Origin: a virus
Lineage: Duplodnaviria; Heunggongvirae; Uroviricota; Caudoviricetes
Direction: 5' to 3' (one strand)
DNA: 12,150 nt
Virus record (IMG/VR): IMGVR_UViG_2681813004_000020
Coordinates: 1-12,150 of that record
Shown: positions 1 to 12,150 of the stretch, in pieces
Numbering within the stretch: the stretch's first letter is position 1
How the letters are laid out: every line of letters starts with the position of its first letter
Position numbers and translations under genes: made by a program
Notes under the pieces: model-generated
Told to the model about the DNA's origin: nothing
The model's input: only the letters and a program-made list of their open reading frames with translations
The model's database searches: none

Positions 1-1284
1 TTACTTCTTCGCCTCTGCAACCACTTTACTACCCACGCCGCGGTTATTGTATTCCCACATGCGGTTGTAGTTAGTGTCATTCAGATTGCGCTGTATTTCG
101 TCGTTATCATCTACGCTGCCGGTATTACCCGCAAACGGACGATTAGAGATCACCGCATCGGCCCACGGTTTAGCCGTGTTAAAACCTTCGTTGATGGCGC
201 TATCACGGATCACCACCTGACCGTTGGTATTGGCATCAACATCCAGCGAGCGGCCCAGTTGCGCCACACCATCACCGAAAGCATTGAAACGGCTGTTTAC
301 GGCGAGGAAACCGTAGTAAATGTTGGACAGCGTAGCCGGTGCAAACACATACGCTTCTTGCTGAGTACGTGAGTTCACCACGCGGAATTCGGTGTTATCG
401 AACACCACTGCGCCGCGACCAGAAACGATATCCACATCCCCTTCAATGTAGCTGTTGGTCACCAGCGTACGCGGCTGACGGTTGGTTTCCAGACGGTTCT
501 GCACACCGCTGTTGGTGACAAAGAAGGTGTTCTGACGACCGAGAATGTTAACGTTGTTAATCTGTACCTGGTCACCATCAGTACGCAGTGCCACCGCCGG
601 ATGGTTACCTGCATCTACGCTATCGCCCAGCGTGTTTTCGATGGTCAGATTTTGCAGTTGCAGGCCATTGTTTTGTGACCAGAAGACCGCAGAGCAGAGA
701 ACACCGATACTGTCGCTGCGTTTGCTCTGGCAGCTATCGTACATATACCACGCTGGTTTACCTGGCATATATTTGCCGCGCGGGTTGACGTCGTGACGCC
801 AGTCGGCAGGGCTCATGCCACCATCAAGGGAAAGCCCAATCTTCACATCAATCGGTTTTTCACCTGTACCGTACAGAGTAATTCCACCCGGAGCGGCAGG
901 GACATATACCGTTCCCTGATACTCACCAGGCATCACGGCAATATACTGGCGCTTGTTGGTACGCTTGATAATTGCCGCATCTACCGCCGCCTGAATCGTG
1001 GTATGCGTTACACCTTGAGTGCCCGCCGGGCCGACAATAAAGTCAGGTTGCGCAGGCAGGGTAATCGGGGAAGGATTCCACGCTGCAGCACCTGGTGTCA
1101 GGGATGCAAAATAGTGTTGAGCATCGAAATTCTGCGCTTCTTTTGCCGACAGAATCGGGCGAGAAGAGGTACCAGGCGCGGTTTGATCAGAAGGACGTTG
1201 ATCGGGCGGGGTTGAGCTACAGGCGGTCAGCGTCACGCCAAAAGCCAATGCCAGCGCCAGACGGGAAACTGAAAATGTGTTCAC
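1..1284 (-). CDS. ybhC: YbhC, pectinesterase-fold outer-membrane lipoprotein (acyl-CoA thioesterase), the host gene flanking lambda attB
   Basis: 427-codon ORF filling the window start; N-terminus MNTFSVSRLALALAFGVTLTAC has a signal peptide and lipobox Cys; GTG start at 1284..1282, TAA stop at 3..1; sits directly beside the lambda att core, as in E. coli. Confidence 0.85.
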   Translation of the reverse strand: MNTFSVSRLALALAFGVTLTACSSTPPDQRPSDQTAPGTSSRPILSAKEAQNFDAQHYFASLTPGAAAWNPSPITLPAQPDFIVGPAGTQGVTHTTIQAAVDAAIIKRTNKRQYIAVMPGEYQGTVYVPAAPGGITLYGTGEKPIDVKIGLSLDGGMSPADWRHDVNPRGKYMPGKPAWYMYDSCQSKRSDSIGVLCSAVFWSQNNGLQLQNLTIENTLGDSVDAGNHPAVALRTDGDQVQINNVNILGRQNTFFVTNSGVQNRLETNRQPRTLVTNSYIEGDVDIVSGRGAVVFDNTEFRVVNSRTQQEAYVFAPATLSNIYYGFLAVNSRFNAFGDGVAQLGRSLDVDANTNGQVVIRDSAINEGFNTAKPWADAVISNRPFAGNTGSVDDNDEIQRNLNDTNYNRMWEYNNRGVGSKVVAEAKK

Positions 1285-1330
1285 AGGTTGCTCCGGGCTA
1301 TGAAATAGAAAAATGAATCCGTTGAAGCCT

Positions 1331-1420
1331 GCTTTTTTATACTAAGTTGGCATTATAAAAAAGTATTGCTTATCAATTTGTTGCAACGAACAGGTCACTA
1401 TCAGTCAAAATAAAATCATT
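1331..1420. other. attL (B-O-P'): lambda att core plus P' arm with IHF and Int arm-type sites
   Basis: Exact 15-bp core GCTTTTTTATACTAA at 1331-1345; IHF-consensus TATCAATTTGTTG at 1371-1383; arm-type Int sites AGGTCACTAT and CAGTCAAAAT at 1392-1411; int stop follows at 1419. Confidence 0.9.
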
Positions 1421-2492
1421 ATTTGATTTCAATTTTGTCCCACTCCCTGCCTCTGTCATCACGATACTGTGATGCCATGGTGTCCGACTTATGCCCGAGA
1501 AGATGTTGAGCAAACTTATCGCTTATCTGCTTCTCATAGAGTCTTGCAGACAAACTGCGCAACTCGTGAAAGGTCGGCGGATCCCCTTCGAAGGAAAGAC
1601 CTGATGCTTTTCGTGCGCGCATAAAATACCTTGATACTGTGCCGGATGAAAGCGGTTCACGATGAGTAGATGCAATTATGGTTTCTCCGCCAAGAATCTC
1701 TTTGCATTTATCAAGTGTTTCCTTCATTGATATCCCGAGAGCATCAACATGCAATGTTGTAGGGATGGCAATTTTTACGCCTGTTTTGCTTTGCTCGACA
1801 TAAAGATATCCATCTACGATATCAGACCACTTCATTTCGCATAAATCACCAACTCGCTGCCCGGTAACAACAGCCAGCTCCATTGCAAGTCTTAGCCAAC
1901 ATGGTGATGATTCTGCTGCTTGATAAATTTTCAGGTATTCGTCAGCCGTAAGTCTTGATCTCCTTACCTCTGATTTTGCTGCGCGAGTGGCAGCGACCGG
2001 GTTTGTTGTTATATGGCCTTCTTCAGCTATTGCCTCTCGGAATGCATCGCTCAGTGTTGATCTGATTAACTTGGCTGACGCCGCCTTGCCCTCGTCTATG
2101 TATCCACTGAGCATTGCCGCAATTTCTTTTGTGGTGATGTCTTCAAGTGGAGCATCAGGCAGCCCCCTCCTTATTGCTTTAATTTTGCTCATGTAATTTA
2201 TGAGAGTCTTCTGCTTGATTCCTCTGCTGGCGAGGATTTTTTCGTAGCGATCAAGCCATGAATGTAACGTAACAGAATTATCACTGTTGATTCTCGCTGT
2301 CAGAGGCTTGTGTTTGTGTCCTGAAAATAACTCAATGTTGGCCTGTATTGCTTCAGTGATTGCTATCCTCCTGTCTCGGCCTAATCCAAACTCTTTACCC
2401 GTCCTTGGGTCCCTGTAGCAGTAATATCCATTGTTTCTTATATAAAGATTAGGGGGTAAATCCCGGCGCTCATGACTTCGCCTTCTTCCCAT
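1419..2492 (-). CDS. int: Tyrosine integrase, lambda Int type
   Basis: 357-aa ORF starting MGRRRSHERRDLPPNLYIRNNGYYCYRDPRTGKEF, recalled as near-identical to lambda Int; catalytic elements HELR, LLGH and the Tyr in SQYRDD are present; ATG start; adjacent to attL. Confidence 0.95.
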   Translation of the reverse strand: MGRRRSHERRDLPPNLYIRNNGYYCYRDPRTGKEFGLGRDRRIAITEAIQANIELFSGHKHKPLTARINSDNSVTLHSWLDRYEKILASRGIKQKTLINYMSKIKAIRRGLPDAPLEDITTKEIAAMLSGYIDEGKAASAKLIRSTLSDAFREAIAEEGHITTNPVAATRAAKSEVRRSRLTADEYLKIYQAAESSPCWLRLAMELAVVTGQRVGDLCEMKWSDIVDGYLYVEQSKTGVKIAIPTTLHVDALGISMKETLDKCKEILGGETIIASTHREPLSSGTVSRYFMRARKASGLSFEGDPPTFHELRSLSARLYEKQISDKFAQHLLGHKSDTMASQYRDDRGREWDKIEIK

Positions 2493-2688
2493 TTCTGATC
2501 CTCTTCAAAAGGCTACCTGTTACTGGTCGATTTAAGTCAACCTTTACCGCTGATTCGTGGAACAGATACTCTCTTCCATCCTTAACCGGAGGAGGGAATA
2601 TCCTGCATTCGCGCACCCATCGACGAACTGTTTCAAGGCTTCTTGGGCGTCGCTGGCGTGCATTCCACTCCTGAAGTGTCAAGTACAT
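2470..2688 (-). CDS. xis: Excisionase, lambda Xis type
   Basis: 72-aa ORF MYLTLQEWNARQRRPRSLETVRRWVRECRIFPPPV, recalled as matching lambda Xis; overlaps the int start by 23 nt as in lambda. Confidence 0.93.
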   Translation of the reverse strand: MYLTLQEWNARQRRPRSLETVRRWVRECRIFPPPVKDGREYLFHESAVKVDLNRPVTGSLLKRIRNGKKAKS

Positions 2689-2714
2689 CGCAAAGTCTCC
2701 GCAATTACACGCAA
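2665..2714 (-). promoter_or_regulatory. cII-activated pI-type promoter (TTGC-N6-TTGC box) at the xis 5' end
   Basis: Minus-strand TTGCGTGTAATTGC (plus 2701-2714) lies 13 nt upstream of the xis ATG, matching the lambda cII recognition repeat; the implied transcription start falls inside xis, as known for pI. Exact -10 not determined. Confidence 0.55.
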
Positions 2715-2719
2715 GAAAA

Positions 2720-2735
2720 GCCGCATTGATGCGGC
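2720..2735 (-). other. Perfect 7-bp-stem hairpin (GCCGCAT/ATGCGGC) followed by TTTTCTT on the minus strand, just upstream of the cII box; possible weak terminator or RNA processing site
   Basis: Inverted repeat read directly from the sequence; the loop is only 2 nt if fully paired, so terminator function is uncertain. Confidence 0.3.
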
Positions 2736-2794
2736 GATGGTAGGTCTGGATATCATTGAGCCATGAACAGGCCTCATCGAGTGTGAGGCTGTGG

Positions 2795-3139
2795 TTAGTC
2801 CTTTCGTAACTCGCTGATTCTCCTGTAAGTCTCTGGTGCTTTGTTTCCGTGTATCTTCATTTCAGACTTCAACAGAGCAACGAGGGAATCCCATTCGTTG
2901 AGGATGCCTTTGAATGCCGGAACGCGCTTTGCAACCTTGTCGAATGAATCTCTGATTTCTGGAATCTTCTCAACAAGTGCAACGCATCGTCGGAAGTCTG
3001 CTGCGTCATGGGGAGCGCCGAAGTGATGACCATAGATATTCTTTTTCAGGCCACATGCGATTGAGGCAAGAGTTGCGCTACTGATGCCAACATCGCCAGT
3101 CGATTGCCATTTCAAAACCTTCATAGACAAATCTGACAT
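2795..3139 (-). CDS. Hypothetical protein, 114 aa, int/xis-proximal accessory gene
   Basis: ATG at 3139..3137 preceded by GGAGACAAGAA (Shine-Dalgarno GGAG); TAA stop at 2795; no family recognised. Confidence 0.6.
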   Translation of the reverse strand: MSDLSMKVLKWQSTGDVGISSATLASIACGLKKNIYGHHFGAPHDAADFRRCVALVEKIPEIRDSFDKVAKRVPAFKGILNEWDSLVALLKSEMKIHGNKAPETYRRISELRKD

Positions 3140-3167
3140 TTCTTGTCTCCAATAAAAAAAACCTCCA

Positions 3168-3335
3168 TCAGGCGGCTTGGTGTTCTTTCAGTTCTTCAAT
3201 TCGAATATTGGTTACGTCTGCATGTGCTATCTGCGCCCATATCATCCAGTGGTCATAGCAGTCATTGATGTTCTCTGCTTCGATAACTCTGTTGAATGGT
3301 TCTCCATTCCATTCACCTGTGACTCGGAAGTGCAT
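3168..3335 (-). CDS. Hypothetical small protein, 55 aa (MHFRVTGEWNGEPFNRVIEAENINDCYDHWMIWAQIAHADVTNIRIEELKEHQAA)
   Basis: Found by manual translation (absent from the ORF track); ATG at 3335..3333 preceded by GGAGATGATAA; TGA stop at 3170..3168. Confidence 0.5.
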   Translation of the reverse strand: MHFRVTGEWNGEPFNRVIEAENINDCYDHWMIWAQIAHADVTNIRIEELKEHQAA

Positions 3336-3373
3336 TTATCATCTCCATAAAACAAAATCCGCCGTAGCGAGTT

Positions 3374-3404
3374 CAGATAAAAGAAATCCCCGCGAGTGCG
3401 AGGA
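3374..3404 (-). terminator. Intrinsic terminator candidate directly after the ASCH-protein stop
   Basis: Minus strand TCCTCGC-ACTC-GCGGGGA (7-bp stem with one G-U pair, 4-nt loop; plus 3387-3404) followed by TTTCTTTTATCTG (plus 3374-3386). Confidence 0.5.
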
Positions 3405-3407
3405 TTG

Positions 3408-3692
3408 TTATTCATTGCCGATATTCACCTTTATCGCGAACACCTTTACCGGTTTATCACCGAAGTGCGGATGTGTGATTGTCTTGATTTCATATCCGTC
3501 ATACGGAACATCAATTCTGCGGCTGGAATCGTCGCGCTTCGGATATCCCTTTGTGATAATCAGGCGGTCATACTCCCGGAACATAATTCGCTTATTCCAA
3601 TAGTCATTACACAGGCGATACTCTTCCGTTTTCTCTCCTCGAATCATGGCATCGAAGTATTCACCTTTGACGGCAAGTTGTAGGTTAGCCAC
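3408..3692 (-). CDS. ASCH-domain protein, 94 aa
   Basis: N-terminal LQLAVKGEYFDAMIRGEKTEEYR contains the ASCH signature GxKxxExR (G19-K21-E24-R26); GTG start at 3692..3690 preceded by AGGAGG with 7-nt spacing; overlaps the upstream stop by 8 nt. Confidence 0.7.
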   Translation of the reverse strand: MANLQLAVKGEYFDAMIRGEKTEEYRLCNDYWNKRIMFREYDRLIITKGYPKRDDSSRRIDVPYDGYEIKTITHPHFGDKPVKVFAIKVNIGNE

Positions 3693-3987
3693 GGTTAACC
3701 TCCTGCGGAGTAGCCTTTACAAGCACTGGTGCAAATCCATCTTCATTAAGGTTATGAATATAGACTTCTGTTCTCCTGCGCTCTTCAACGTTTAATATTG
3801 TTTCTGGATCATAAACCCATACTTTCATTCGACTATTCCATGAAGAAATCGCTTCAGATCTAGTTCGTTTTTCTGGTCCTTGGGCACCACATTTGCATGA
3901 CACATAGCGCATTTTCCCTCTGATACTGAATGAGTATCCGATGTTAAGCACAGTGGAACCACAGAATGGGCAGCGATATAGATTCAT
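3685..3987 (-). CDS. Lar-family-like zinc-ribbon protein (restriction alleviation family) with a ~45-aa C-terminal extension, 100 aa
   Basis: N-terminal LYRCPFCGSTVL...VSCKCGAQGPEKRTRSEAISSWNSR matches the recalled Lar-family pattern CPFCG...C-x-CGA-x-GP...EAI-x-x-WN-x-R; ATG preceded by AAGGTGGA; ATGA stop/start overlap with the upstream gene. Confidence 0.55.
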   Translation of the reverse strand: MNLYRCPFCGSTVLNIGYSFSIRGKMRYVSCKCGAQGPEKRTRSEAISSWNSRMKVWVYDPETILNVEERRRTEVYIHNLNEDGFAPVLVKATPQEVNRG

Positions 3988-4601
3988 AAATCATCCACCT
4001 TAGGCGCAGCTGAGACAGCAACATTCCAGAACTCAGAAAACATATTGTATGCACCAGATAGATTGGAAGTAGCATACCCTCCAAGCTCACTTCTAATCTG
4101 AACGGCTCTCATCATTTCCGGGGTTAACTCCTTCGGCACCATAACCCAACCATCCGGAGTTACCGGAGAGTTGCCACCGGGAATATTTTCCGGAATATTT
4201 TGTTGTGCGTTTTGTGGTTGTTCTGATTTACCCTGAAGCATGGCGGCGCGGCAGGCGTTCCAGCCAGCTGTTCGCCCAAGCGCGTAAACTTCAGATGGAT
4301 CAAGATAATCAATGTCATGCCCGTCCTCATCGTCGTTCTCAGGTAATGCAGCAGGTACTACCGGTACTGGCGGAGCGGCGTAGACCTCAATAATTCCATT
4401 ATCAATAGGCCATTCTCCATCCTTGAGGTAGTCACTTGTGCCGTCAACTTGCTGTTCTGCAATGTGGAATGCACCTATTGGTTTTGCTTCCAGCGATGCC
4501 AGAGCAATCCGTGCCAGTTCCATTTGTTCGCCACTAGTAAGTCCGTTATCAAGCGGGGATTTAATGAACAATTCGATACGTTCTTTAGTGATAGTGCTCA
4601 T
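3984..4601 (-). CDS. Hypothetical protein, 205 aa
   Basis: Start set to the internal ATG at 4601..4599 (MSTITKERIELF...), which has an AGGAG SD 7 nt upstream and lies 1 nt after the upstream TGA stop; the 33-codon extension in the ORF track overlaps the neighbouring gene and has no SD. Confidence 0.6.
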   Translation of the reverse strand: MSTITKERIELFIKSPLDNGLTSGEQMELARIALASLEAKPIGAFHIAEQQVDGTSDYLKDGEWPIDNGIIEVYAAPPVPVVPAALPENDDEDGHDIDYLDPSEVYALGRTAGWNACRAAMLQGKSEQPQNAQQNIPENIPGGNSPVTPDGWVMVPKELTPEMMRAVQIRSELGGYATSNLSGAYNMFSEFWNVAVSAAPKVDDL

Positions 4602-4602
4602 A

Positions 4603-5160
4603 TCACTCTCCTTTGATGCGAATGCCAGCTGCGCTTGCTGATTCTTCATATGCGCGTTTAGCAGCGTTAAGGATTGCTGCCAGTGGCGTATAGCCGCCAT
4701 CCATTCGGATTGTGTTGTGGATGCCAGCCATTGTGTCGCGCAATTTGCTGTGGCTAGCAGACAGTTCTGCTATGCACTTCTCTGCGGCATCGGCTCGATC
4801 TTTTTCACGCTGGAACATTTTGTGAGTGCGGTCTATAGCTTCGATTCGTGCCGCTGATGTCTTCTGCACGGCTTCAAGCTCAACACGCAGCTTCCCAACC
4901 GTAAGAGCAATATCCTCGTTCTTCTGGTCGCGGCGTTTGATGTATTGCTGGTTTCTTTCCCGTTCATCCAGTAGTGCCAGCACGGTTTCTGGCCCGGTCA
5001 GAAATTTGAAGGCGTTGAGCGCATCAATATCCACACCGTAATCCTTAAGTTCCTGTTCAGTTAACAAATCATCATCAACTGGCAACATTAACAGGCGTTC
5101 CATTGCCGGAATTGCACGCTCTGCCGCCTCACGCAGTGCCTGATAGTCAATCTTGCTCAT
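4603..5160 (-). CDS. ea22: Ea22-like protein, 185 aa
   Basis: Internal LLDERERNQQYIKRRDQKNEDIALTVGKLRVELE and C-terminal AGIRIKGE resemble lambda Ea22 as recalled; AAAGGAG SD 8 nt upstream; ATGA overlap with the upstream stop. Confidence 0.5.
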   Translation of the reverse strand: MSKIDYQALREAAERAIPAMERLLMLPVDDDLLTEQELKDYGVDIDALNAFKFLTGPETVLALLDERERNQQYIKRRDQKNEDIALTVGKLRVELEAVQKTSAARIEAIDRTHKMFQREKDRADAAEKCIAELSASHSKLRDTMAGIHNTIRMDGGYTPLAAILNAAKRAYEESASAAGIRIKGE

Positions 5161-5714
5161 TGGATGACTCCTTTACGAAGCTGTTCGGCGATATCTTCGA
5201 GAATGCCATCAGAGAATGAACGGTCAAAATCGCCTTCCGGCGCATTGGCCATAAACTCAGTAGAGGTAAGAATCATCCGGGCAATATCAGCGGCGTTCTT
5301 CGCAGTATCATCAATAAAACCAGCTTCCCAGGCAGCCAGCATTCTGTTCGCCACAAAGTAAGCGCCCTCCTTGCGTGCTTCAGTCTTCACTTCAGCCAGA
5401 AAAGCATCGGTGGCTGGGGTTTCAGTAATATCATCTTCCCATTCGCTAAACTCCTCACGACAAAAGTCATTAAATTCCTTCTCAGATTGCTTAAGCGAGG
5501 AATTTTCAGCAGCCATCTTCGCGCATTTAGCCTCAAGGTTATCAATCGTGATTCCAGCAGAACGACACTCCCGCAACGCCGTTTCTAGTTTTGATTCAAG
5601 TTCACCGAACTTACGGACAAGATATTCATCGTTTGTTTCGTCAACCTTTAAATCACTTGGGATGCATTTACCTTTCAGAAAACCATCCATCTCAATTAGT
5701 GTCATTTGTTTCAT
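5157..5714 (-). CDS. Hypothetical acidic protein, 185 aa (start at [12 protein letters not shown])
   Basis: ORF track starts at a GTG (5732..5730); the first ATG (5714..5712) forms an ATGA overlap with the upstream stop and is preferred; a second ATG lies at 5705. Confidence 0.55.
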
Positions 5715-5875
5715 TTCTTCCCACTCCGCCACATCGCATTCAGATATTTGTTGTCATTAACAGAACCGAAACTCTTTCTCTTAAGCAATTCCTCTCTCGA
5801 TGGCATTGGCTTTGCGCGTTGGCGAATAATCATTTCTGCCGGAAGAATGCCGGGATTGTATGCAAGTCCTCTCAT
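5711..5875 (-). CDS. Hypothetical small protein, 54 aa ([54 protein letters not shown])
   Basis: ATG at 5875..5873 preceded by GAGGAA; an in-frame upstream ATG at 5893 would give 60 aa; start lies inside copy 1 of the 109-bp tandem duplication. Confidence 0.45.
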
Positions 5876-6049
5876 GGTAAATTCCTCAGTCATTACTGAT
5901 AGCGCCATAGCGTGAGCGGTAATTACGCAGGCGCGGGTCAATTTCTGCCGGAAGAATGCCGGGATTGTATGCAAGTCCTCTCATGGTAAATTCCTCAGTC
6001 ATTACTGATAGCGCCATAGCGTGAGCGGTAATTACGCAGGCGCGGGTCA
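5832..6049. repeat. Perfect tandem duplication, 2 x 109 bp (5832-5940 and 5941-6049), with 5-bp microhomology ATTTC continuing at 6050-6054
   Basis: Base-by-base comparison: the two units are identical; the flanks differ (C at 5831, AGGG at 6055). Confidence 0.95.
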
Positions 6050-6288
6050 ATTTCAGGGAAGTGGGTATATGTGGCTTTGCGGAATGGTCGGATTGATGTC
6101 TGGTAAATTCGCTCGCGTTCTTCTTTCTCTGCAAGCCATATACAATGGCGAAATTCCTTTTCCTCTTTCGTTTCCTGCGGTAGCGACATTATCCGATCGT
6201 AGTTTTTTCTGAATTTATCCAGCACCTCCGATACGGAATTGCCGGAACAGCGGCGCGCGTCATCCGCACCATACAGAGGCGCTGGCAT
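5995..6288 (-). CDS. Hypothetical protein A1, 97 aa (MPAPLYGADDARRCSGNSVSEVL...), paralog of the 8937-9119 gene
   Basis: ATG at 6288 preceded by CAGGAGAAAAC; stop lies inside copy 2 of the 109-bp duplication; first 30 nt identical to the paralog. Confidence 0.6.
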   Translation of the reverse strand: MPAPLYGADDARRCSGNSVSEVLDKFRKNYDRIMSLPQETKEEKEFRHCIWLAEKEERERIYQTSIRPFRKATYTHFPEIDPRLRNYRSRYGAISND

Positions 6289-6304
6289 GGTTTTCTCCTG
6301 TTGA

Positions 6305-6853
6305 TTATTTAGCTAACTTTTTCCAGATCGCTGAAACGTATTTGGCTTGGTGAATGGCATCATCAAGCGCGTTGTGGCGAGTTCCTTTGAATGGCATATC
6401 TCGCTTAGGGTCTAATCCTATTACCTTCCCAAGTTCGACGATTGTTCTTACGTCGCGGTCATTCCACCACTGCCACGGAACTGGCTGCCCTGTCAGCGAA
6501 TAACTGTTTCGGAGAATAACGCAGTCAAATGATGCTCCATTCCCCCAAACCTGAACGAATTTGTGGTTAGCGTTCTTTATGATGAATTCAGATAACCATG
6601 AAAGAGCCGTTGAAAGCTCCTGAGTGTTGCTGGTTAGCGATTTTCTGGCTTCTTCACTCTGTTCCAGCCACCATAAAATCGTTGAAGCGTCAGGACGCGC
6701 CCGATATCGCATTGATGACTCAAGCGAGATATTTACCGAGAACTCTTCTCCTGTTTCTCCGGTATTCGGGTCAAAGAATACCGCCCCAATAGAAATAACT
6801 GGCGCATATGGCCCGTTGCCCATTGTTTCAAGGTCAACCATTAAGTGATTCAT
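6305..6853 (-). CDS. DnaQ-like DEDDh 3'-5' exonuclease, 182 aa
   Basis: Exo I motif VDLETMG near the N-terminus and H-x4-D motif HNALDDA near the C-terminus; AAGGA SD; lies next to ssb as in many prophage recombination modules. Confidence 0.8.
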   Translation of the reverse strand: MNHLMVDLETMGNGPYAPVISIGAVFFDPNTGETGEEFSVNISLESSMRYRARPDASTILWWLEQSEEARKSLTSNTQELSTALSWLSEFIIKNANHKFVQVWGNGASFDCVILRNSYSLTGQPVPWQWWNDRDVRTIVELGKVIGLDPKRDMPFKGTRHNALDDAIHQAKYVSAIWKKLAK

Positions 6854-6861
6854 GTAAGTCC

Positions 6862-7368
6862 TTAAATTGCGTGAATAGCGTGACGAGGGAAGGGGAGAGT
6901 TACTGGTGCAAAGGGTATATCGTCGTCAAAATCCATCGGAGGTTCGTTGTGTTGTGCTGGTGATGATTGCTGCTGTGGCTTCTGTGATTGCCTGCTGGCT
7001 GCTTGTTGTTTGCTGTCGCCAATTCCGCCAAGCATTTGCATCACGCCATTAATTCCGACATGAACCTCGGTTGTGTAACGGTCTTGCCCTGACTGGTCTT
7101 TCCACTTTCTGGTTCTCAGCATTCCCTCGAAATAAATCTGATCACCTTTTTTCACATACTGCCCCACGACCTCAGCCAGTTTCCCGGATACAGCAACACG
7201 ATGCCATTCAGTCAATTCCTTTTGCTCGCCAGTATTTTTATCTCGCCATTGTTCTGACGTGGCTATTGTCAGGTTAGCGAACGCTGTACCTGATGGTGAG
7301 TATCGAACTTCCGGGTCTTGTCCTACCCGACCAAGGATAATCACCTTATTTACGCCTCTGCTTGCCAT
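6862..7368 (-). CDS. ssb: Single-stranded DNA-binding protein (SSB) with an atypical 15-aa extension after the DDDIPF tip
   Basis: N-terminal [23 protein letters not shown]...[11 protein letters not shown] matches the E. coli SSB OB fold as recalled; Gln/Pro-rich linker; [11 protein letters not shown], then the frame continues [15 protein letters not shown] before TAA. Confidence 0.9.
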
Positions 7369-8076
7369 TTATGCCGCCTGTTTTAGTTCGTTAACTCTGA
7401 TGTTCATTACCTGAACGCATTTAGCCTGCGCCTCCTCATTGCCAGCCATTAATTGCCAGTCACGCTGATAACGCTCGATGAGTTTTTTCTTGTCAGTTTC
7501 TGTTGACGCATAATCGCTGAAGTCTTTCAGGATTTGTTCGCAGTCAACCGATGGAGATTTCTGGTTGGTATTTTCTGGTGATGGTTTGTTATCTGATGCT
7601 GGTATTGCCCATCCCGGCAGCGATGGAGGGAGCCAGTAAAATCCTGTTCCATCCTTGAGTTTTGCCCTGTGCCATCCCTGCTTTTTATCGAGAGATGTTT
7701 GTGCGAAACCTTCCTCAAGGTTATACAGATACCGACCGATTCCCCACTGAACGGCAGCGCGCTTCATTGCACCGGAACGACCACCTTTGACGGCTTCTAC
7801 CTGCGTGTTTTCAGCAGCATCCCATTTGGTTACCCATTCGGAATCAATCTTTATTGATATGCCGCATTCAACGCCGCCGTTGTTGGGAATATCGCGGTAT
7901 TCATTGCGCCATCCTGCTTTGCCGCAAACATCGTCCAGGCGTTTCATGATTGCCCGGTTCGTTACATAAGCCAGCACCATAGCCCACACTTTGCCATCGC
8001 GTGTTTTACCGCTTTGCTGTATTCGCCATTCGATATCTTCAGGGCTGAATGGCTCATCGAATTTATTCAAATCCAT
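7369..8076 (-). CDS. Rad52-type single-strand annealing protein, 235 aa
   Basis: Motif GAMKRAAVQWGIGRYLYNL resembles the Rad52 signature GLKRALRSFGNALG; GAGGTGA SD; directly upstream of ssb. Confidence 0.65.
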   Translation of the reverse strand: MDLNKFDEPFSPEDIEWRIQQSGKTRDGKVWAMVLAYVTNRAIMKRLDDVCGKAGWRNEYRDIPNNGGVECGISIKIDSEWVTKWDAAENTQVEAVKGGRSGAMKRAAVQWGIGRYLYNLEEGFAQTSLDKKQGWHRAKLKDGTGFYWLPPSLPGWAIPASDNKPSPENTNQKSPSVDCEQILKDFSDYASTETDKKKLIERYQRDWQLMAGNEEAQAKCVQVMNIRVNELKQAA

Positions 8077-8084
8077 AATTCACC

Positions 8085-8255
8085 TCAGAATGGACACGGC
8101 CCAAGGAAATAACGCTGATTTAATACTTCAACTCGGGACAAATTAAGGCATACCCGCATTCCTTCGCGGTCGCCATTATGGCGATACCAGAGAGCTTTCT
8201 GCGTGTACATGCGTCTCTGTAACTTGCTCTCCTTCACTGTGGTTGCAAGTGACAT
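8085..8255 (-). CDS. Hypothetical small protein, 56 aa (MSLATTVKESKLQRRMYTQKALWYRHNGDREGMRVCLNLSRVEVLNQRYFLGPCPF), paralog of the 10416-10604 gene
   Basis: Manual translation; GAAGGAGATATTC-ATG (strong SD); stop overlaps the SD of the Rad52-type gene; aligns over its length with the 62-aa protein in the other module (shared L-x-R, A-x-W/Y-x-R-x-x-GD, CL, N-x-R-x-FL, terminal PF). Confidence 0.55.
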   Translation of the reverse strand: MSLATTVKESKLQRRMYTQKALWYRHNGDREGMRVCLNLSRVEVLNQRYFLGPCPF

Positions 8256-8334
8256 GAATATCTCCTTCGTTACCGATTAATTCTTTCATCTGACGAATGA
8301 ATTCTTCGTCTGACCAGTTATCTGTAAAACTCAT
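8176..8334 (-). CDS. Alternative small ORF, 52 aa (MSFTDNWSDEEFIRQMKELIGNEGDIHVTCNHSEGEQVTETHVHAESSLVSP), overlapping the 56-aa gene in another frame
   Basis: ATG forms an ATGA overlap with the kil-like stop, mirroring the junction in the other module, but has a poor SD and overlaps the better-supported 56-aa gene by 80 nt. Confidence 0.2.
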   Translation of the reverse strand: MSFTDNWSDEEFIRQMKELIGNEGDIHVTCNHSEGEQVTETHVHAESSLVSP

Positions 8335-8483
8335 TTCCTGCGATACCACGGATGGTTGATAGCTGATTTCATCGCTTTATTTGCTTCAAGCCACATTTTT
8401 GAATCACCAATAAATCTGGCTATTACTGCTTTGTTCTGTGCAGCACGAAGCATCTGGTGATTGATGGCTATTTCATTGCGCAT
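8331..8483 (-). CDS. Kil-like small protein (paralog), 50 aa
   Basis: MRNEIAINHQMLRAAQNKAVIARFIGDSKMWLEANKAMK... aligns with the other module's Kil (IATFIGDEKMFREAVEA versus IARFIGDSKMWLEANKA); GGAGG SD 5 nt upstream; start overlaps the 3' end of the cIII-like gene. Confidence 0.6.
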   Translation of the reverse strand: MRNEIAINHQMLRAAQNKAVIARFIGDSKMWLEANKAMKSAINHPWYRRK

Positions 8484-8602
8484 AACGCCTCCAGTTGTTT
8501 CTTTGCTGCTCTGATTAATTGTTTAACTCGGCGTGATAATTCAGATTCGTGCGGGTAGAAAGCGGACATGACGCCGCTACCCGCGAGCTGAAAGTGCATC
8601 AT
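8468..8602 (-). CDS. CIII-like small protein (divergent paralog), 44 aa
   Basis: MMHFQLAGSGVMSAFYPHESELSRRVKQLIRAAKKQL parallels CIII (AGxx...SESLLERITRKLRDGWKRL); TAAGGAG SD 5 nt upstream; immediately downstream of repeat copy 1; same cIII-then-overlapping-kil arrangement. Confidence 0.6.
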   Translation of the reverse strand: MMHFQLAGSGVMSAFYPHESELSRRVKQLIRAAKKQLEALCAMK

Positions 8603-8664
8603 GGGTAACTCCTTATATTTGATTGCATAACGAAAACGCCTCGAGTGAAGCGTTATTGGTATGC

Positions 8665-8692
8665 ATATAAAAAAGCCCTCACACTGGAGGGC
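8665..8692 (-). terminator. Intrinsic terminator inside repeat copy 1
   Basis: Minus strand GCCCTC-CAGTGT-GAGGGC followed by TTTTTTATAT; a second weaker hairpin AACGCTTC-ACTC-GAGGCGTT then TTCGTT lies at plus 8635-8654. Confidence 0.6.
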
Positions 8693-8785
8693 AAAGAAGA
8701 TTTCCAATAATCAGAACAAGTCGGCTCCTGTTTAGTTACGAGCGACATTGCTCACATAGCAGACTCGCAAATCTGCTATAGGTGC

Positions 8786-8944
8786 TTATTCGCATCGCAT
8801 GACAACATCAAATTTTTCGAGATTACTTTGTCGCAACAATCCTTCTTCTACGCGGTCAGCTTTTCTATAATTATCAAATTCGAAATGTTTAATTACTTCT
8901 TTCGTTTCTCGCTCTATAACTTCAACAATGTATTTCTTATTCAT
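8786..8944 (-). CDS. Hypothetical small protein, 52 aa (MNKKYIVEVIERETKEVIKHFEFDNYRKADRVEEGLLRQSNLEKFDVVMRCE), copy 1
   Basis: Manual translation; ATG overlaps the stop of the upstream gene (GATGAATAA); weak SD; duplicated exactly at 11027-11185. Confidence 0.4.
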   Translation of the reverse strand: MNKKYIVEVIERETKEVIKHFEFDNYRKADRVEEGLLRQSNLEKFDVVMRCE

Positions 8945-9119
8945 CGTTCTCATCTTTTAACGCGAGTTGTATATCGCGTCGGTACATCCGTTCTGCTTTT
9001 GTTTCTGGTGGCAGATCAATAAACGTGTCGAAAATGTTTTTGATATTTTCCAGCACCTCCGCCTTGGAGCTACCGGAGCAATTGCGCGGGTCATCCGCAC
9101 CATACAGAGGCGCTGGCAT
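8937..9119 (-). CDS. Hypothetical protein A2, 60 aa (MPAPLYGADDPRNCSGSSKAEVL...), paralog of the 5995-6288 gene
   Basis: ATG at 9119; first 30 nt identical to A1, then diverging; TAA stop overlaps the start of the 52-aa ORF. Confidence 0.55.
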   Translation of the reverse strand: MPAPLYGADDPRNCSGSSKAEVLENIKNIFDTFIDLPPETKAERMYRRDIQLALKDENDE

Positions 9120-9142
9120 AATGGGAGCCTTATTTTCAGTAA

Positions 9143-9730
9143 TCAGAAAGGAGGGTAATCGTTCTGGCTGTAACCATAATCATCTGCATGATTCTGGCTT
9201 ACGTTTTTAGAGCGATTGTCTTTATCTTTGAGATTGGCAACCATGTTGGCGATAGTTTCTGGTTGCTTGCCTTCTGCCTTTTCTTTAAGGGTTTGACCTG
9301 TTTGTGCAATAAACGGGATGCGTATTTCCATCTGGTAGCTGTCTGCGCCAGTCTTTTTGTTTGTGGTTAATACTTTCTGGAGCACTAACCCGATTTTCTT
9401 TCCATGAAATTCAGGTGCAACAAATTTACTGGCGGAAACCATATGCTGCGTTAATTGTCCAATCCCGGCACACCCCATCATGGCGTGAACGACATTTGCG
9501 CCAAATTTGTTTTCCGTGCCGTCATTTTTCTGAACACAGACGCTAAGATATTGGATTTTACGTCCGTCGTCGGATTCGCCAGAAAACTCAATAAATTTGG
9601 CTCCTTTTTCTGATTGCTTTAGTTCTGCTTCAGTAATGGTAATGATATGAGCACCAGTTTCGTTAATAAAACCACCTTGCCCTGCGGTCAGTGCTGCTTC
9701 TTCGTTATAAGTAAAAATCACGTTGCTCAT
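9143..9730 (-). CDS. Putative cognate ssDNA-binding partner of Sak4 (DUF669-like?), 195 aa, with an SSB-like C-terminal tail DYPPF
   Basis: ATGA overlap with the Sak4 stop; C-terminus ...HADDYGYSQNDYPPF resembles the acidic SSB tip DDDIPF; family assignment by context and tail only. Confidence 0.5.
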   Translation of the reverse strand: MSNVIFTYNEEAALTAGQGGFINETGAHIITITEAELKQSEKGAKFIEFSGESDDGRKIQYLSVCVQKNDGTENKFGANVVHAMMGCAGIGQLTQHMVSASKFVAPEFHGKKIGLVLQKVLTTNKKTGADSYQMEIRIPFIAQTGQTLKEKAEGKQPETIANMVANLKDKDNRSKNVSQNHADDYGYSQNDYPPF

Positions 9731-10407
9731 GCGGCGTTTTCCTTAATTTGATGAACATTATTGATGCCGTAGTAATCACAAACAGTGGCATCGACGAAAG
9801 AGAGATCGTTATCAATCTCATTGGAATCAAACATTCCCATTGGGGATTTAACAGTGTCTGCACCGTTGTTTTTTGTGGTGAAAAAGAACTGGTCATCACG
9901 GGTAAGGGTGCGAAGAACTATAGTAAACATGCCTTCGACAGTGATTTTCTCGTCCAGCATTTTGCCGATAGTCTTCATTTTCACACGCCCCATAGGAGTT
10001 TCTTCGGTGTGCGCAAGAAAATAGACTCTCAGGTCATCAGGCGCATCCTGCGCAGCCTTAATGACCTCCCATGCGTGACGGCCTATCTCAGTAAATTTAT
10101 CAAACGATTTTTCTTCTGAGCGGCGCATAAACTCATTGCTCATCACATACTGGAAGTCATCAACAATAACGATTCTTTTCCCGTATTCGTGAGCACGCTT
10201 AATTACGGCAACTATTACGTCCCATTTGTCAGTGGTAACTACGGTTCCTTTTTTTGCTCTGGCATCCCATGCAAGCCAGTCTTTTGATTTAAATGGTAGC
10301 GGCTTGCCTATTGGTTTTATAAGTATTGCTTCCTCTGGATTGATATTTCTCATGCTGGTTGATTTTCCGGTGCCAGACTCACCGAGTATTAATGTCGCAG
10401 TTCCCAT
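9727..10407 (-). CDS. Sak4-like RecA-core P-loop ATPase (AAA_24-type phage recombination protein), 226 aa
   Basis: Walker A GESGTGKS at residues 9-16, Walker B-like IVIVDD; size and position downstream of kil, where lambda has its Red recombination genes; GAGG SD. Confidence 0.7.
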   Translation of the reverse strand: MGTATLILGESGTGKSTSMRNINPEEAILIKPIGKPLPFKSKDWLAWDARAKKGTVVTTDKWDVIVAVIKRAHEYGKRIVIVDDFQYVMSNEFMRRSEEKSFDKFTEIGRHAWEVIKAAQDAPDDLRVYFLAHTEETPMGRVKMKTIGKMLDEKITVEGMFTIVLRTLTRDDQFFFTTKNNGADTVKSPMGMFDSNEIDNDLSFVDATVCDYYGINNVHQIKENAA

Positions 10408-10415
10408 AATTTGCC

Positions 10416-10604
10416 TCAGAATGGTAATTCGGATGGGGAGGAAAGAAACTCGCGCTCATTCATGCGCTCTCTTTGTGCCTGCCATAAACAAAGTTGTTTC
10501 TTTGATTTATCTCCCGCTTTACGCCAGTAACGAGCCTCAGCAATGTGATATTCTCTTTTTAATCGACTTAACTCTGGAGTTTTCGCCAGTTCTACCGGAA
10601 TCAT
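10416..10604 (-). CDS. Hypothetical small protein, 62 aa (MIPVELAKTPELSRLKREYHIAEARYWRKAGDKSKKQLCLWQAQRERMNEREFLSSPSELPF)
   Basis: Internal ATG with GGAGG SD and an ATGA overlap with the kil stop; paralogous to the 56-aa protein at 8085-8255. Confidence 0.5.
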   Translation of the reverse strand: MIPVELAKTPELSRLKREYHIAEARYWRKAGDKSKKQLCLWQAQRERMNEREFLSSPSELPF

Positions 10605-10714
10605 TTTGACCTCCATTTCCTGTAGGCTTCGACGGCCTCACGAAACATCTTTTCATCGCCAATAAAAGTGGCGATAGTGAATTTAGTCTGGATAGCCATA
10701 AGTGTTTTATCCAT
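10601..10714 (-). CDS. kil: Kil (FtsZ-targeting host-killing peptide), 37 aa
   Basis: MDKTLMAIQTKFTIATFIGDEKMFREAVEAYRKWRSK; ATG overlaps the last codons of cIII as in lambda; the ORF-track version includes an unsupported N-terminal extension. Confidence 0.6.
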   Translation of the reverse strand: MDKTLMAIQTKFTIATFIGDEKMFREAVEAYRKWRSK

Positions 10715-10847
10715 TTTTTGGAACTCCTGGCTGATTAAGTATGTCGATAAGGCGTTTCCATCCGTCACGTAATTTACGTGTGATTCGCTCAAGTAAAGAT
10801 TCGGAAGGGCAGCCAGCAACAGGCCACCCTGCAATGGCATATTGCAT
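10707..10847 (-). CDS. cIII: CIII (FtsH/HflB protease inhibitor), lambda type, 46 aa
   Basis: MQYAIAGWPVAGCPSESLLERITRKLRDGWKRLIDILNQPGVPKNG matches lambda CIII as recalled over its whole length; AAGGAG SD 7 nt upstream; lambda CIII is recalled as about 8 residues longer. Confidence 0.8.
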   Translation of the reverse strand: MQYAIAGWPVAGCPSESLLERITRKLRDGWKRLIDILNQPGVPKNG

Positions 10848-10905
10848 GGTGTGCTCCTTATTTATACATAACGAAAACGCCTCGAGTGAAGCGTTATTGG
10901 TATGC

Positions 10906-10933
10906 ATATAAAAAAGCCCTCACACTGGAGGGC
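10906..10933 (-). terminator. Intrinsic terminator inside repeat copy 2
   Basis: Same GCCCTC-CAGTGT-GAGGGC plus U-tract as in copy 1. Confidence 0.6.
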
Positions 10934-11026
10934 AAAGAAGATTTCCAATAATCAGAACAAGTCGGCTCCTGTTTAGTTACGAGCGACATTGCTCACATAG
11001 CAGACTCGCAAATCTGCTATAGGTGC

Positions 11027-11185
11027 TTATTCGCATCGCATGACAACATCAAATTTTTCGAGATTACTTTGTCGCAACAATCCTTCTTCTACGCGGTCAG
11101 CTTTTCTATAATTATCAAATTCGAAATGTTTAATTACTTCTTTCGTTTCTCGCTCTATAACTTCAACAATGTATTTCTTATTCAT
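11027..11185 (-). CDS. Hypothetical small protein, 52 aa, copy 2 (one extra in-frame ATG upstream)
   Basis: Identical to 8786-8944; here preceded by GGGGAAGA, and the ATG overlaps the stop of the 98-aa gene. Confidence 0.4.
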   Translation of the reverse strand: MNKKYIVEVIERETKEVIKHFEFDNYRKADRVEEGLLRQSNLEKFDVVMRCE

Positions 11186-11481
11186 CATTCTTCCCCAAGA
11201 GCTTTTCTGATTGCTGCAAGACCTTTATTAACAGCTCCATACCATTCTGGATATGTTGTCTTTGTTCTATTTTTGGTTTGCTTAAGTAATAACTGAAGTG
11301 CTTCGAGAAGGTCAGGTGCTGCCGCTATTAGATTGGCATCTTCAATGCATTGAACTTCCTCACAGATTGCAATATACGAACGCCAGCCTGCGCCATTTTC
11401 AAGTGAGTCTGCCTGGATGATTTTAATCTCATCGCCATCCATCATTATTTCCCACTTACCTTCAGTACCTTTAAATTCCAT
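11185..11481 (-). CDS. Hypothetical protein, 98 aa
   Basis: ATG at 11481 preceded by AGAGGCTAAC; acidic N-terminal half; no family recognised. Confidence 0.6.
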   Translation of the reverse strand: MEFKGTEGKWEIMMDGDEIKIIQADSLENGAGWRSYIAICEEVQCIEDANLIAAAPDLLEALQLLLKQTKNRTKTTYPEWYGAVNKGLAAIRKALGEE

Positions 11482-11492
11482 GTTAGCCTCTG

Positions 11493-11520
11493 TTGTTTAT
11501 GCCAAAAATAAAGGCCGACT
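11493..11520 (-). terminator. Intrinsic terminator (tL1-like position) overlapping the stop of the 107-aa gene
   Basis: Minus strand AAGGCCG-AATAGT-CGGCCTT (7-bp stem) followed by ATTTTTGG. Confidence 0.6.
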
Positions 11521-11842
11521 ATTCGGCCTTATCTACATTCCTGAACCAAACGCAGATCGGACCGTCTTCTGTATCGTGAATCGAACCGACAAACCATCCT
11601 TCTCCATCTGGCATGCTTGGCTCCCATCCACTGATGTTTTGATTCCCATCTTCAAAATACGCGTCAATTACCGTTTGATTGTTGTCGTTTTCCATTTCAA
11701 CAATTGATGATTCAATGCCATGCTGCTTGCAGAAAGATCTGAACTCATCAGCTGAAATTACCTCTCTATCCCCAAACAGGTTGGCGTATTCTGGGTGCGT
11801 CCAGTAGCCATCCTCGCTTCGCTCTACTACTAATGCTTCCAT
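11519..11842 (-). CDS. Highly acidic Trp-rich protein of unknown function, 107 aa, first gene after N
   Basis: ATG at 11842 preceded by GAGGTGAGAT; about 24 Asp/Glu against 6 Lys/Arg; four Trp; no family recognised. Confidence 0.65.
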   Translation of the reverse strand: MEALVVERSEDGYWTHPEYANLFGDREVISADEFRSFCKQHGIESSIVEMENDNNQTVIDAYFEDGNQNISGWEPSMPDGEGWFVGSIHDTEDGPICVWFRNVDKAE

Positions 11843-11850
11843 ATCTCACC

Positions 11851-12150
11851 TCAAATAAGTGGTTTGCTGCCTAATTTCATTTTCTGGCGACCAACACAAG
11901 TCACACCCATTTCACTGCGTGGCTTGCGGTAGTAAATACGGTTCTGTTTACGCTCTACTTCTTCTGCCTTCTTGCAGCGAAGGCTTCCGAGTGATGCTGC
12001 TTTATCTGCTCTGACGCAACCAGAGAGCTTTAGCGCAATTTTTCGCGCCAGTCGCTGCTCTTGCATTGCCTGTTCACGTTGAGCCTGTCTGCGTGCTCTG
12101 CGGCGATTTCTGGCGTTATCGTCAGCCAGATATGTAATGACTACTGTCAT
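11851..12150 (-). CDS. N: N-like transcription antitermination protein (phage 21-type C-terminus); the ATG sits exactly at the window edge, so the true start may lie further upstream
   Basis: Arg-rich motif NARNRRRARRQAQREQ near the N-terminus; C-terminus RKPRSEMGVTCVGRQKMKLGSKPLI parallels lambda N ...SKPGERGITCSGRQKIKGKSIPLI; position at the head of the leftward operon. Confidence 0.8.
   Translation of the reverse strand: MTVVITYLADDNARNRRRARRQAQREQAMQEQRLARKIALKLSGCVRADKAASLGSLRCKKAEEVERKQNRIYYRKPRSEMGVTCVGRQKMKLGSKPLI

Follow-up and report, generated by a model that had tools for sequence, protein, structure and literature searches.

The best described relative of the phage gene considered here is orf184 of mEp213, which Silas et al. 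included in a screen of accessory genes (bioRxiv 10.1101/2023.04.06.535777). Its protein product (AFM76385.1, termed UDP0184 in that work) was selected as 'counter-defence-associated' because the gene shares an accessory region with ral. When expressed alone, orf184 caused cell death by Gop-beta-cII in ECOR59, the killing could be rebuilt in a laboratory strain with cloned gop-beta-cII, and suppressor transposon insertions in ECOR59 were recovered in both 'protein beta' and 'protein gop' (Supplementary File 5 of the same preprint). Gop-beta-cII, a death system carried by a P4-like satellite, is one of the anti-phage systems encoded at the P4 hotspot and restricts lambda and P1 (Rousset et al. 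2022). Here we analyse a near-identical gene, designated X, which lies on the minus strand at positions 11519-11842 of a 12,150-nucleotide (nt) stretch of DNA (the window) that corresponds to positions 1 to 12,150 of the IMG/VR virus record IMGVR_UViG_2681813004_000020. Gene X encodes 107 amino acids (aa) from an ATG start codon to a TAG stop codon, and its closest phage relative is the orf184 product itself (mEp213_045, or gp45), with 97.2% identity over 106 of 107 residues and four substitutions (V28A, S36Y, Q68P and E107A). The gene is therefore already known, in that a near-identical protein was previously synthesised, screened and reported as a Gop-beta-cII trigger. Because of this identity, X would be expected to trigger the same system.

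Our preferred interpretation, to which we give an even chance of being correct, is that X is an arms-race accessory protein, the E. coli prophage version of the orf184 family, probably a small stoichiometric binder that would be produced immediate-early and for which Gop-beta-cII would act as a back-up sensor. To the published findings we add the cassette architecture of the locus, a prediction of immediate-early expression, the size of the family and its presence on Klebsiella IncF plasmids, a conserved motif together with conserved charge, and fusions to Lar and Tad2-like domains. An earlier note, made from the DNA alone, had recognised no family for X and had proposed it as a candidate anti-restriction or anti-defence factor, perhaps a DNA mimic resembling Ocr or ArdA. 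The absence of a family does not hold, as X belongs to phrog_1372, which it matches over its full length (E 1.2e-43, residues 1-106), in addition to being an orthologue of orf184. An anti-defence role is plausible given the slot that X occupies, the presence of Ral as an alternative allele of that slot, and the sensing of its 97% identical orthologue by an abortive-infection system, a property shared with Ocr, ArdA and Stp; the specific DNA-mimic mechanism is unlikely.

Gene X is real and not a chance open reading frame (ORF). It begins 8 nt past the stop codon of the antitermination gene N (TGA at 11853-11851, with the ATG of X at 11842-11840), the sequence from one to the other reads TGAGGTGAGATATG, and a GAGG core is located 6 nt ahead of the ATG. 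The N stop codon overlaps the Shine-Dalgarno sequence of X (GAGGTGAG, 11852-11845), such that the two elements read from the sequence together span 11845-11853 on the minus strand. The 12.2 kDa product contains 24 Asp or Glu residues (22%), 6 Lys or Arg, 3 His and 4 Trp, with a net charge of -18 and an isoelectric point (pI) of 4.11 that is the lowest among the 28 leftward-operon ORFs of the window. On all of these points the earlier note was accurate, since it had described a strongly acidic, Trp-rich protein with a good Shine-Dalgarno sequence, encoded by the first gene after N. It had also likened this position to that of ral and sieB in lambda, and X does occupy the equivalent region.

The variable nature of this position becomes evident when related loci are compared. 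By blastn, homology to three E. coli prophage loci with flanks that are 98-99% identical (L008, L009 and L010) breaks at 11516-11529 and resumes at 11836-11850. These break points define a swappable cassette at 11530-11836, and the variable segment is almost exactly the X ORF. The slot is filled by Ral plus a 121-aa ORF in L008, by an 83-aa ORF in L009 and by an Nmad5-family protein in L010, with the Ral allele matching PF11058 at E 1.6e-48. The left anchor of the slot is the 98-aa gene downstream of X (11185-11481, minus strand; phrog_1273, E 1.5e-32), which is named an XkdD/Y8K6 family phage-associated protein in one RefSeq record. The conserved right flank is the 99-aa N gene (11851-12150, minus strand), whose ATG start codon forms the last three bases of the window. 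Its identity is supported by a match to phrog_271 (E 5e-37), by a match to PF25694 N_peptide that falls under the curated cut-off (E 8e-4), and by near-identical E. coli prophages in which the gene is annotated as antitermination protein N or N peptide. The flanks at 10900-12150 are present in 2,269 of 5,426 complete E. coli genomes, and X is present in only 41 of the 5,426, where it is always annotated as 'hypothetical protein'.

A census of the slot was made with IMG/VR loci collected by the 98-aa anchor gene (n=80), and slot content was tabulated for 76 of these. The alleles observed were an 83-aa acidic phrog_2471 protein (17 loci), Ral (15 loci), a 156-aa phrog_1636 protein (11 loci), X (9 loci), Nmad5 (6 loci), a 149-aa hydrophobic protein of phrog_3054 (4 loci), DUF7167 (3 loci), a 60-aa protein (3 loci), DUF7446 (2 loci), a PAPS-reductase-like protein (1 locus) and singletons in various loci; phrog_37822 and phrog_33140 are also among the slot alleles (loci L012-L091). 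One locus contains both X and Ral. The slot is a compact and precisely bounded cassette, with the N stop codon and Shine-Dalgarno sequence on one side and an intrinsic terminator on the other. X, Ral, Nmad5 and the 83-aa protein of phrog_2471 are unrelated, yet each has K-A-A or K-A-E at its C-terminus, because the 5' arm of the terminator hairpin that they share supplies their last codons. The recombination joint is thereby placed inside the coding sequence. Approximately ten alleles besides Ral are candidate counter-defence or exclusion genes. A dispensable, rare and horizontally mobile gene, located in a hypervariable slot that also accepts a proven anti-restriction gene, fits the description of an arms-race accessory protein.

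The terminator that bounds the cassette also bears on the timing of expression. A terminator scan identified an intrinsic terminator-like hairpin and U-tract at 11501-11530 on the minus strand (stem 11530-11511), in which UAUUUUUGG comes after the stem AAGGCCGA-AUAG-UCGGCCUU. The last codons of X (K-A-E) are read from the 5' arm of the stem, and the X stop codon is in the loop. The predicted RNA fold has a free energy of -16.7 kcal/mol (z -3.95), a value equalled by none of 200 shuffled sequences, and the hairpin belongs to the conserved left flank that is kept with the other cassette alleles. A scan of 10400-12150 found no promoter-like site on the coding strand. The region upstream of N lies outside the window, and can be viewed in a locus with identical N and X (L013). 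There, at positions 2074-2192 of that locus, palindromic operator-like sequences flank a pL-like promoter (TTTACA-17-TATTCT), and past the promoter are a boxA-like sequence (GGCTCTTTAACA) and a hairpin (TCCCGC-CGAAAT-GCGGGA), which together make a plausible nutL. Between this promoter and the 98-aa gene, a terminator-like site occurs only once, at the stop codon of X. Since X precedes the first terminator, it would be made together with N once pL fires, independently of antitermination, and we infer from this arrangement that X is an immediate-early, N-independent gene.

The family to which X belongs is large. When 1.8 billion representative proteins were searched with its profile, 992 clusters (counted at 50% identity) matched at E<=1e-3, of which 482 also passed E<=1e-10. 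An alignment of 27 X homologues, with identity down to 42%, contains 20 invariant positions, and 178 copies of the domain share a two-part motif. The first part is V6-x-R8 and G12-(aromatic)-W14-x-H16-P17, and the second is W73-x-P75-x-x-P78-x-G80-x-G82-W83-F84-x-x-S87-I88-x-D90-T91-E92-D93-G94-P95-x-x-x-W99-x-R101; every motif position is present in X. Acidity is likewise a family trait. Across 177 domains, the median is 22 acidic versus 7 basic residues, with a median net charge of -15 and a median of 6 Trp, and 96% have a pI below 5. The negative charge of the 178 domains is conserved as composition and not as position, with D9, E51, D53 and the D-T-E-D turn as exceptions. What the family does conserve is two Arg, one His, a scaffold of Trp, Phe, Pro and Gly, and a D-T-E-D-G-P hairpin turn, and neither alignment (27 homologues or 178 domains) reveals an enzyme-like set of conserved residues. 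The lack of enzyme-like residues, taken with an aromatic, Gly and Pro scaffold that carries a strongly negative surface, makes a stoichiometric binder most likely.

Searches of annotated libraries were largely silent. A Pfam scan of X found zero families at E<=0.1, including the anti-restriction families ArdA, ArdB-KlcA, Ral, Lar and Gam; the same library did detect Ral, Lar, Abc2 and Tad2-like domains in other proteins of the study. The PADLOC-DB defence models gave nothing at E<=1, an NCBIfam scan gave nothing usable, and a profile search of Protein Data Bank (PDB) sequences gave noise only (E>=0.8). No mentions were found in the literature by X-related accession or PHROG identifier.

Structural modelling gave a similar result. 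An AlphaFold2 model of X built from the 27-sequence alignment has a confidence (pLDDT) of 80 and a predicted template modelling score (pTM) of 0.69. It comprises short N-terminal strands, three helices (residues 19-23, 31-40 and 56-63), a strand spanning 43-49, and then a long loop (64-83) that leads to a hairpin (84-102). The published AlphaFold2 model of orf184 is more confident over residues 1-15, where its pLDDT values are 90-98. Foldseek comparison of our model with 350,542 PDB chains returned nothing below E 1.5, and a BFVD search returned only uncharacterised relatives. When the family alignment was compared by hhalign with known DNA mimics, the probability was 0.27% for Ocr (4 aligned columns) and 0.1% for Arn, and no fold like those of solved DNA mimics was found for the X model. 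Thus, the idea that X is a DNA mimic gained nothing from either structure prediction or profile comparison. As modelled, X has a fold without a solved neighbour and without a tie to any known DNA mimic, and these negative fold results agree with those of Silas et al. (bioRxiv 10.1101/2023.04.06.535777).

In its stand-alone form, X is mobile across phages, prophages and approximately 2,000 plasmids. Homologues occur in 80 phage records from at least 12 genera, always among small early or accessory genes, and their sources include phages of Burkholderia, Pseudomonas, Erwinia, Vibrio and Klebsiella, as well as Yersinia phage PY54 and the P1-like phage D6. In P1-like phage-plasmids (L143-L148), we also observed a 46% identical paralogue (P0020, at 6001-6312) that is represented in more than 400 contigs. 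The P1/D6-like early operon consistently includes this paralogue, with genes for DUF4752 and a 74-aa protein before it and the ppp metallophosphoesterase gene directly downstream.

Plasmids provide an even larger collection. Homologues were found in 2,036 PLSDB plasmids, or approximately 3% of sequenced plasmids. Conjugative plasmids make up 1,763 of these 2,036, and Klebsiella is the source of 1,496; most are IncF, and we take the Klebsiella plasmids to be pKpQIL-like. The Klebsiella plasmid homologue WP_004152383 is approximately 36% identical to X and lies between finO and repA. In the IncFII Klebsiella plasmid NZ_AP027264.1 (L002, 8345-9300), the order is finO, PIN, a hypothetical gene, DUF2726, the X homologue, a PLD nuclease and repA, and the start of the X homologue overlaps the end of the basic, nuclease-like DUF2726 gene (pI 10.4). 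We considered DUF2726 and X as a nuclease and inhibitor pair, and rejected this idea because the DUF2726, PIN and PLD neighbours recur in no other locus. An Enterobacter IncF plasmid carries its homologue between traW and traU. When ORFs around 50 genomic loci were clustered, X had no constant partner gene, and the only neighbours to recur were integrase in 21 loci, a cytosine methyltransferase-like protein in 9 and tra genes in 6.

Furthermore, the X domain is frequently part of a longer protein. Of the 150 top-ranked family representatives, approximately half exceed X in length, with the domain N-terminal in 38 and C-terminal in 40. Lar (PF14354) is fused N-terminal of the X domain in two relatives (P0064 and P0153) and C-terminal in another (P0158). 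A Tad2-like domain (PF11195) is fused C-terminal in P0079 (E 1.5e-22), which is the single such case among 79 long relatives. Additional partners are an Rv2179c-like exonuclease (two cases), DHH/DHHA1 and KTSC, and the remainder are mostly unannotated PHROGs or Ea22-like segments.

These observations can be assembled into a tentative mechanism. When pL fires, X would be made with N and before antitermination, a timing that would suit a protein needing to act before host defences do. It might then block or divert a basic or nucleic-acid-binding protein of the host or of a resident element, and the partner would probably be an immunity or DNA-processing component. Gop-beta-cII could serve as a back-up sensor of X or of the effect of X. 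No X homologues were found in lambda or P1, both of which are restricted by Gop-beta-cII, and therefore this system would have several triggers or would guard a process that is disturbed by different phage proteins. Since both beta and gop were needed for killing, beta is not merely an antitoxin there and may be the sensor. In a domain scan of Gop, beta and cII, the only match was PF14350 'Beta protein', and we found no paper linking Gop to a trigger other than that of Silas et al. A more ambitious form of this proposal, which we regard as less likely than not, is that the X domain, present in phages of many Proteobacteria as well as on plasmids, is a new-fold inhibitor of a widespread immunity or DNA-surveillance component, carried in an N-independent immediate-early cassette, for which Gop-beta-cII would be a dedicated guard with beta as its sensor.

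Several points weigh against an arms-race function for X. The slot argument is one of guilt by association, because Ral is the sole allele with a tested function, and lambda carries the exclusion gene sieB in the equivalent region, between N and ral. The N-independent expression that we propose rests on a consensus terminator scan. On IncF plasmids, the homologues are found at the distal end of the tra operon or inside it, rather than in the leading region, in which the anti-defence genes of plasmids are concentrated. Many of the fusion partners are ordinary early-region modules, such as Ea22-like segments and exonucleases, and so the fusions may reflect only neighbourhood. Finally, the genes recorded as increasing plaquing in the published screen, which covered some phage-host pairs only, do not include orf184; those recorded are Ocr, Ral, ArdA, six new genes and IpII (bioRxiv 10.1101/2023.04.06.535777).

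Given these reservations, it is appropriate to weigh other functions for X. The sensitisation results just noted weigh against the proposal that X inhibits type I restriction-modification enzymes by mimicking DNA, as Ocr and ArdA do, since these two proteins and Ral scored as sensitisers. The sets of triggers differ as well: Ocr and ArdA trigger the ECOR55 system, Ocr also triggers that of ECOR22, and the ECOR66 screens were run with Ocr, Aop1 and ArdA. In contrast, the sole system triggered by orf184 was Gop-beta-cII, in ECOR59, and orf184 is not listed as a trigger of the ECOR55, ECOR22 and ECOR66 systems (bioRxiv 10.1101/2023.04.06.535777). DNA mimicry could draw on the conserved acidity of the family, the predicted immediate-early position of X, its allelic relationship with Ral, which acts on type I restriction-modification, and the relatives fused to Lar restriction-alleviation domains. 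However, most of the acidic residues are not fixed in position, the Pfam and hhalign comparisons offer no link, and the co-occurrence of X and Ral in one locus suggests non-redundant roles, and thus we judge this mechanism unlikely. Somewhat less doubtful is a role in host takeover or DNA metabolism, in which X, as an adaptor domain, would engage a host protein of replication, recombination or nucleotide metabolism to the advantage of phage or plasmid DNA entering the cell, and Gop-beta-cII would sense X by chance. The lack of a counter-defence phenotype for orf184 in the published screen would then be unsurprising, and this function would also be in keeping with the recombination and replication genes that neighbour X, with the plasmid homologue in or beside the tra operon, and with fusions at either end that include an Rv2179c-like 3'-5' exonuclease, a DHH/DHHA1 phosphoesterase and Ea22-like segments. 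Yet X is dispensable and is swapped for unrelated cassettes beside the same N and downstream genes, and its scarcity among E. coli genomes relative to its flanks is typical of an arms-race accessory and not of a core helper.

Two further possibilities are weaker still. The Tad2-like fusion raises the prospect that X is a sponge or binder of a small nucleotide immune signal, like Tad1, Tad2 and Acb2. The DHH/DHHA1 phosphoesterase and Rv2179c-like exoribonuclease partners are enzyme types able to act on (oligo)nucleotides, and the conserved aromatic residues together with R8, H16 and R101 could line a pocket. A domain with a net charge of approximately -15 and two conserved basic residues is nevertheless a poor fit for anionic ligands, the X model has no structural similarity to any solved sponge, and the Tad2 fusion is an isolated case, which leaves this function very unlikely. 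Most improbable of all, in our estimation, is that X is a prophage-encoded defence or superinfection-exclusion factor with a role like that of sieB. Prophage early regions carry exclusion genes, lambda sieB lies between N and ral, and the slot itself accepts a 149-aa protein with hydrophobic segments (phrog_3054). In opposition to this, the coding strand of the window offers no promoter-like site in X or ahead of it, and hence X should be silent in a lysogen. The protein is soluble, with 0 transmembrane segments in the published table for orf184 (bioRxiv 10.1101/2023.04.06.535777), there is no PADLOC match, and homologues also reside on plasmids and in phages without a prophage context. We therefore return to an arms-race accessory protein of the orf184 family as the preferred description of X.

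The window that contains X represents the left arm of a lambdoid prophage. Genes for integrase (1419-2492) and excisionase (2470-2688) come after a chromosomal gene that ends at 1284, which we take to be ybhC, beside the lambda attachment site, and a long leftward operon then reaches up to N. Genes of this operon, named from Pfam and PHROG profile matches, encode a Lar-like restriction-alleviation protein (3685-3987; PF14354, E 1e-8), an Ea22-like protein (4603-5160), the full Abc2 anti-RecBCD protein (5995-6288; PF11043, E 6e-63), an Rv2179c-like exonuclease (6305-6853), SSB (6862-7368), a Rad52-like annealase (7369-8076), a partial second copy of Abc2 that is 72% identical to the full copy (8937-9119), an SSB-like protein (9143-9730), a Sak4-like ATPase (9727-10407), kil (10601-10840) and cIII (10707-10907). 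Therefore, the operon that includes X also includes the counter-defence genes for Abc2 and the Lar-like protein.

Two duplications were observed in this operon. An exact 300-base-pair (bp) direct repeat is present at 8626-8925 and 10867-11166, with copies that are 2,241 bp apart and that enclose cIII, kil, a 66-aa gene, the Sak4-like ATPase gene, the SSB-like gene and the abc2 fragment. This bracketing accounts for the presence of two recombination modules in the prophage (Sak4-like plus SSB-like, and Rad52-like plus SSB) and for the occurrence of a 53/55-aa gene of phrog_6949 twice, at 11027-11188 and 8786-8953. In related prophages, the 98-aa gene is directly joined to a Rad52 or RecT module. 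Separately, two exact tandem copies of a 109-bp unit at 5832-6049 overlap the 3' end of abc2 and produce a repeated peptide in the ORFs at 5711-5974 and 5886-6134; these copies could be a true duplication or an assembly artefact.

Because the X family extends far beyond coliphages, any target that it has would matter widely, for instance to how resistance plasmids spread. In addition, the slot between N and the terminator offers a ready list of candidate counter-defence genes.

Comparison with known systems helps to place X among early phage proteins. SieB-type exclusion involves a membrane protein expressed from the prophage, unlike X, which lacks both a transmembrane segment (per the orf184 table) and a promoter-like site. 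Lar (PF14354) and the Tad2-like domain (PF11195) are fusion partners of the X domain, yet X matches neither model. Ral (PF11058) uses the identical slot, between the N stop codon and Shine-Dalgarno sequence and the same terminator, within flanks that are 98-99% identical, and ends in a terminator-encoded K-A-A; it has no sequence relationship to X and is 66 aa long versus 107 aa. Ral is reported to hyperactivate a methyltransferase, and triggered no cell death in the screen, which in turn reports no restriction relief by orf184 (bioRxiv 10.1101/2023.04.06.535777). Like Ocr (T7 gp0.3) and ArdA, X is small, very acidic and, if its predicted timing is correct, among the earliest proteins expressed, but it shares neither sequence or profile similarity nor a fold with them. 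All three types of protein, with orf184 standing for X, are sensed by abortive-infection back-up systems, namely Gop-beta-cII for orf184 and the ECOR55, ECOR22 and ECOR66 loci for Ocr and ArdA. The closest parallel is orf184 itself. Both genes are located in the operon region between N and cIII, in an accessory region shared with ral; in mEp213 a 74-aa ORF lies between N and orf184, whereas here X follows N directly.

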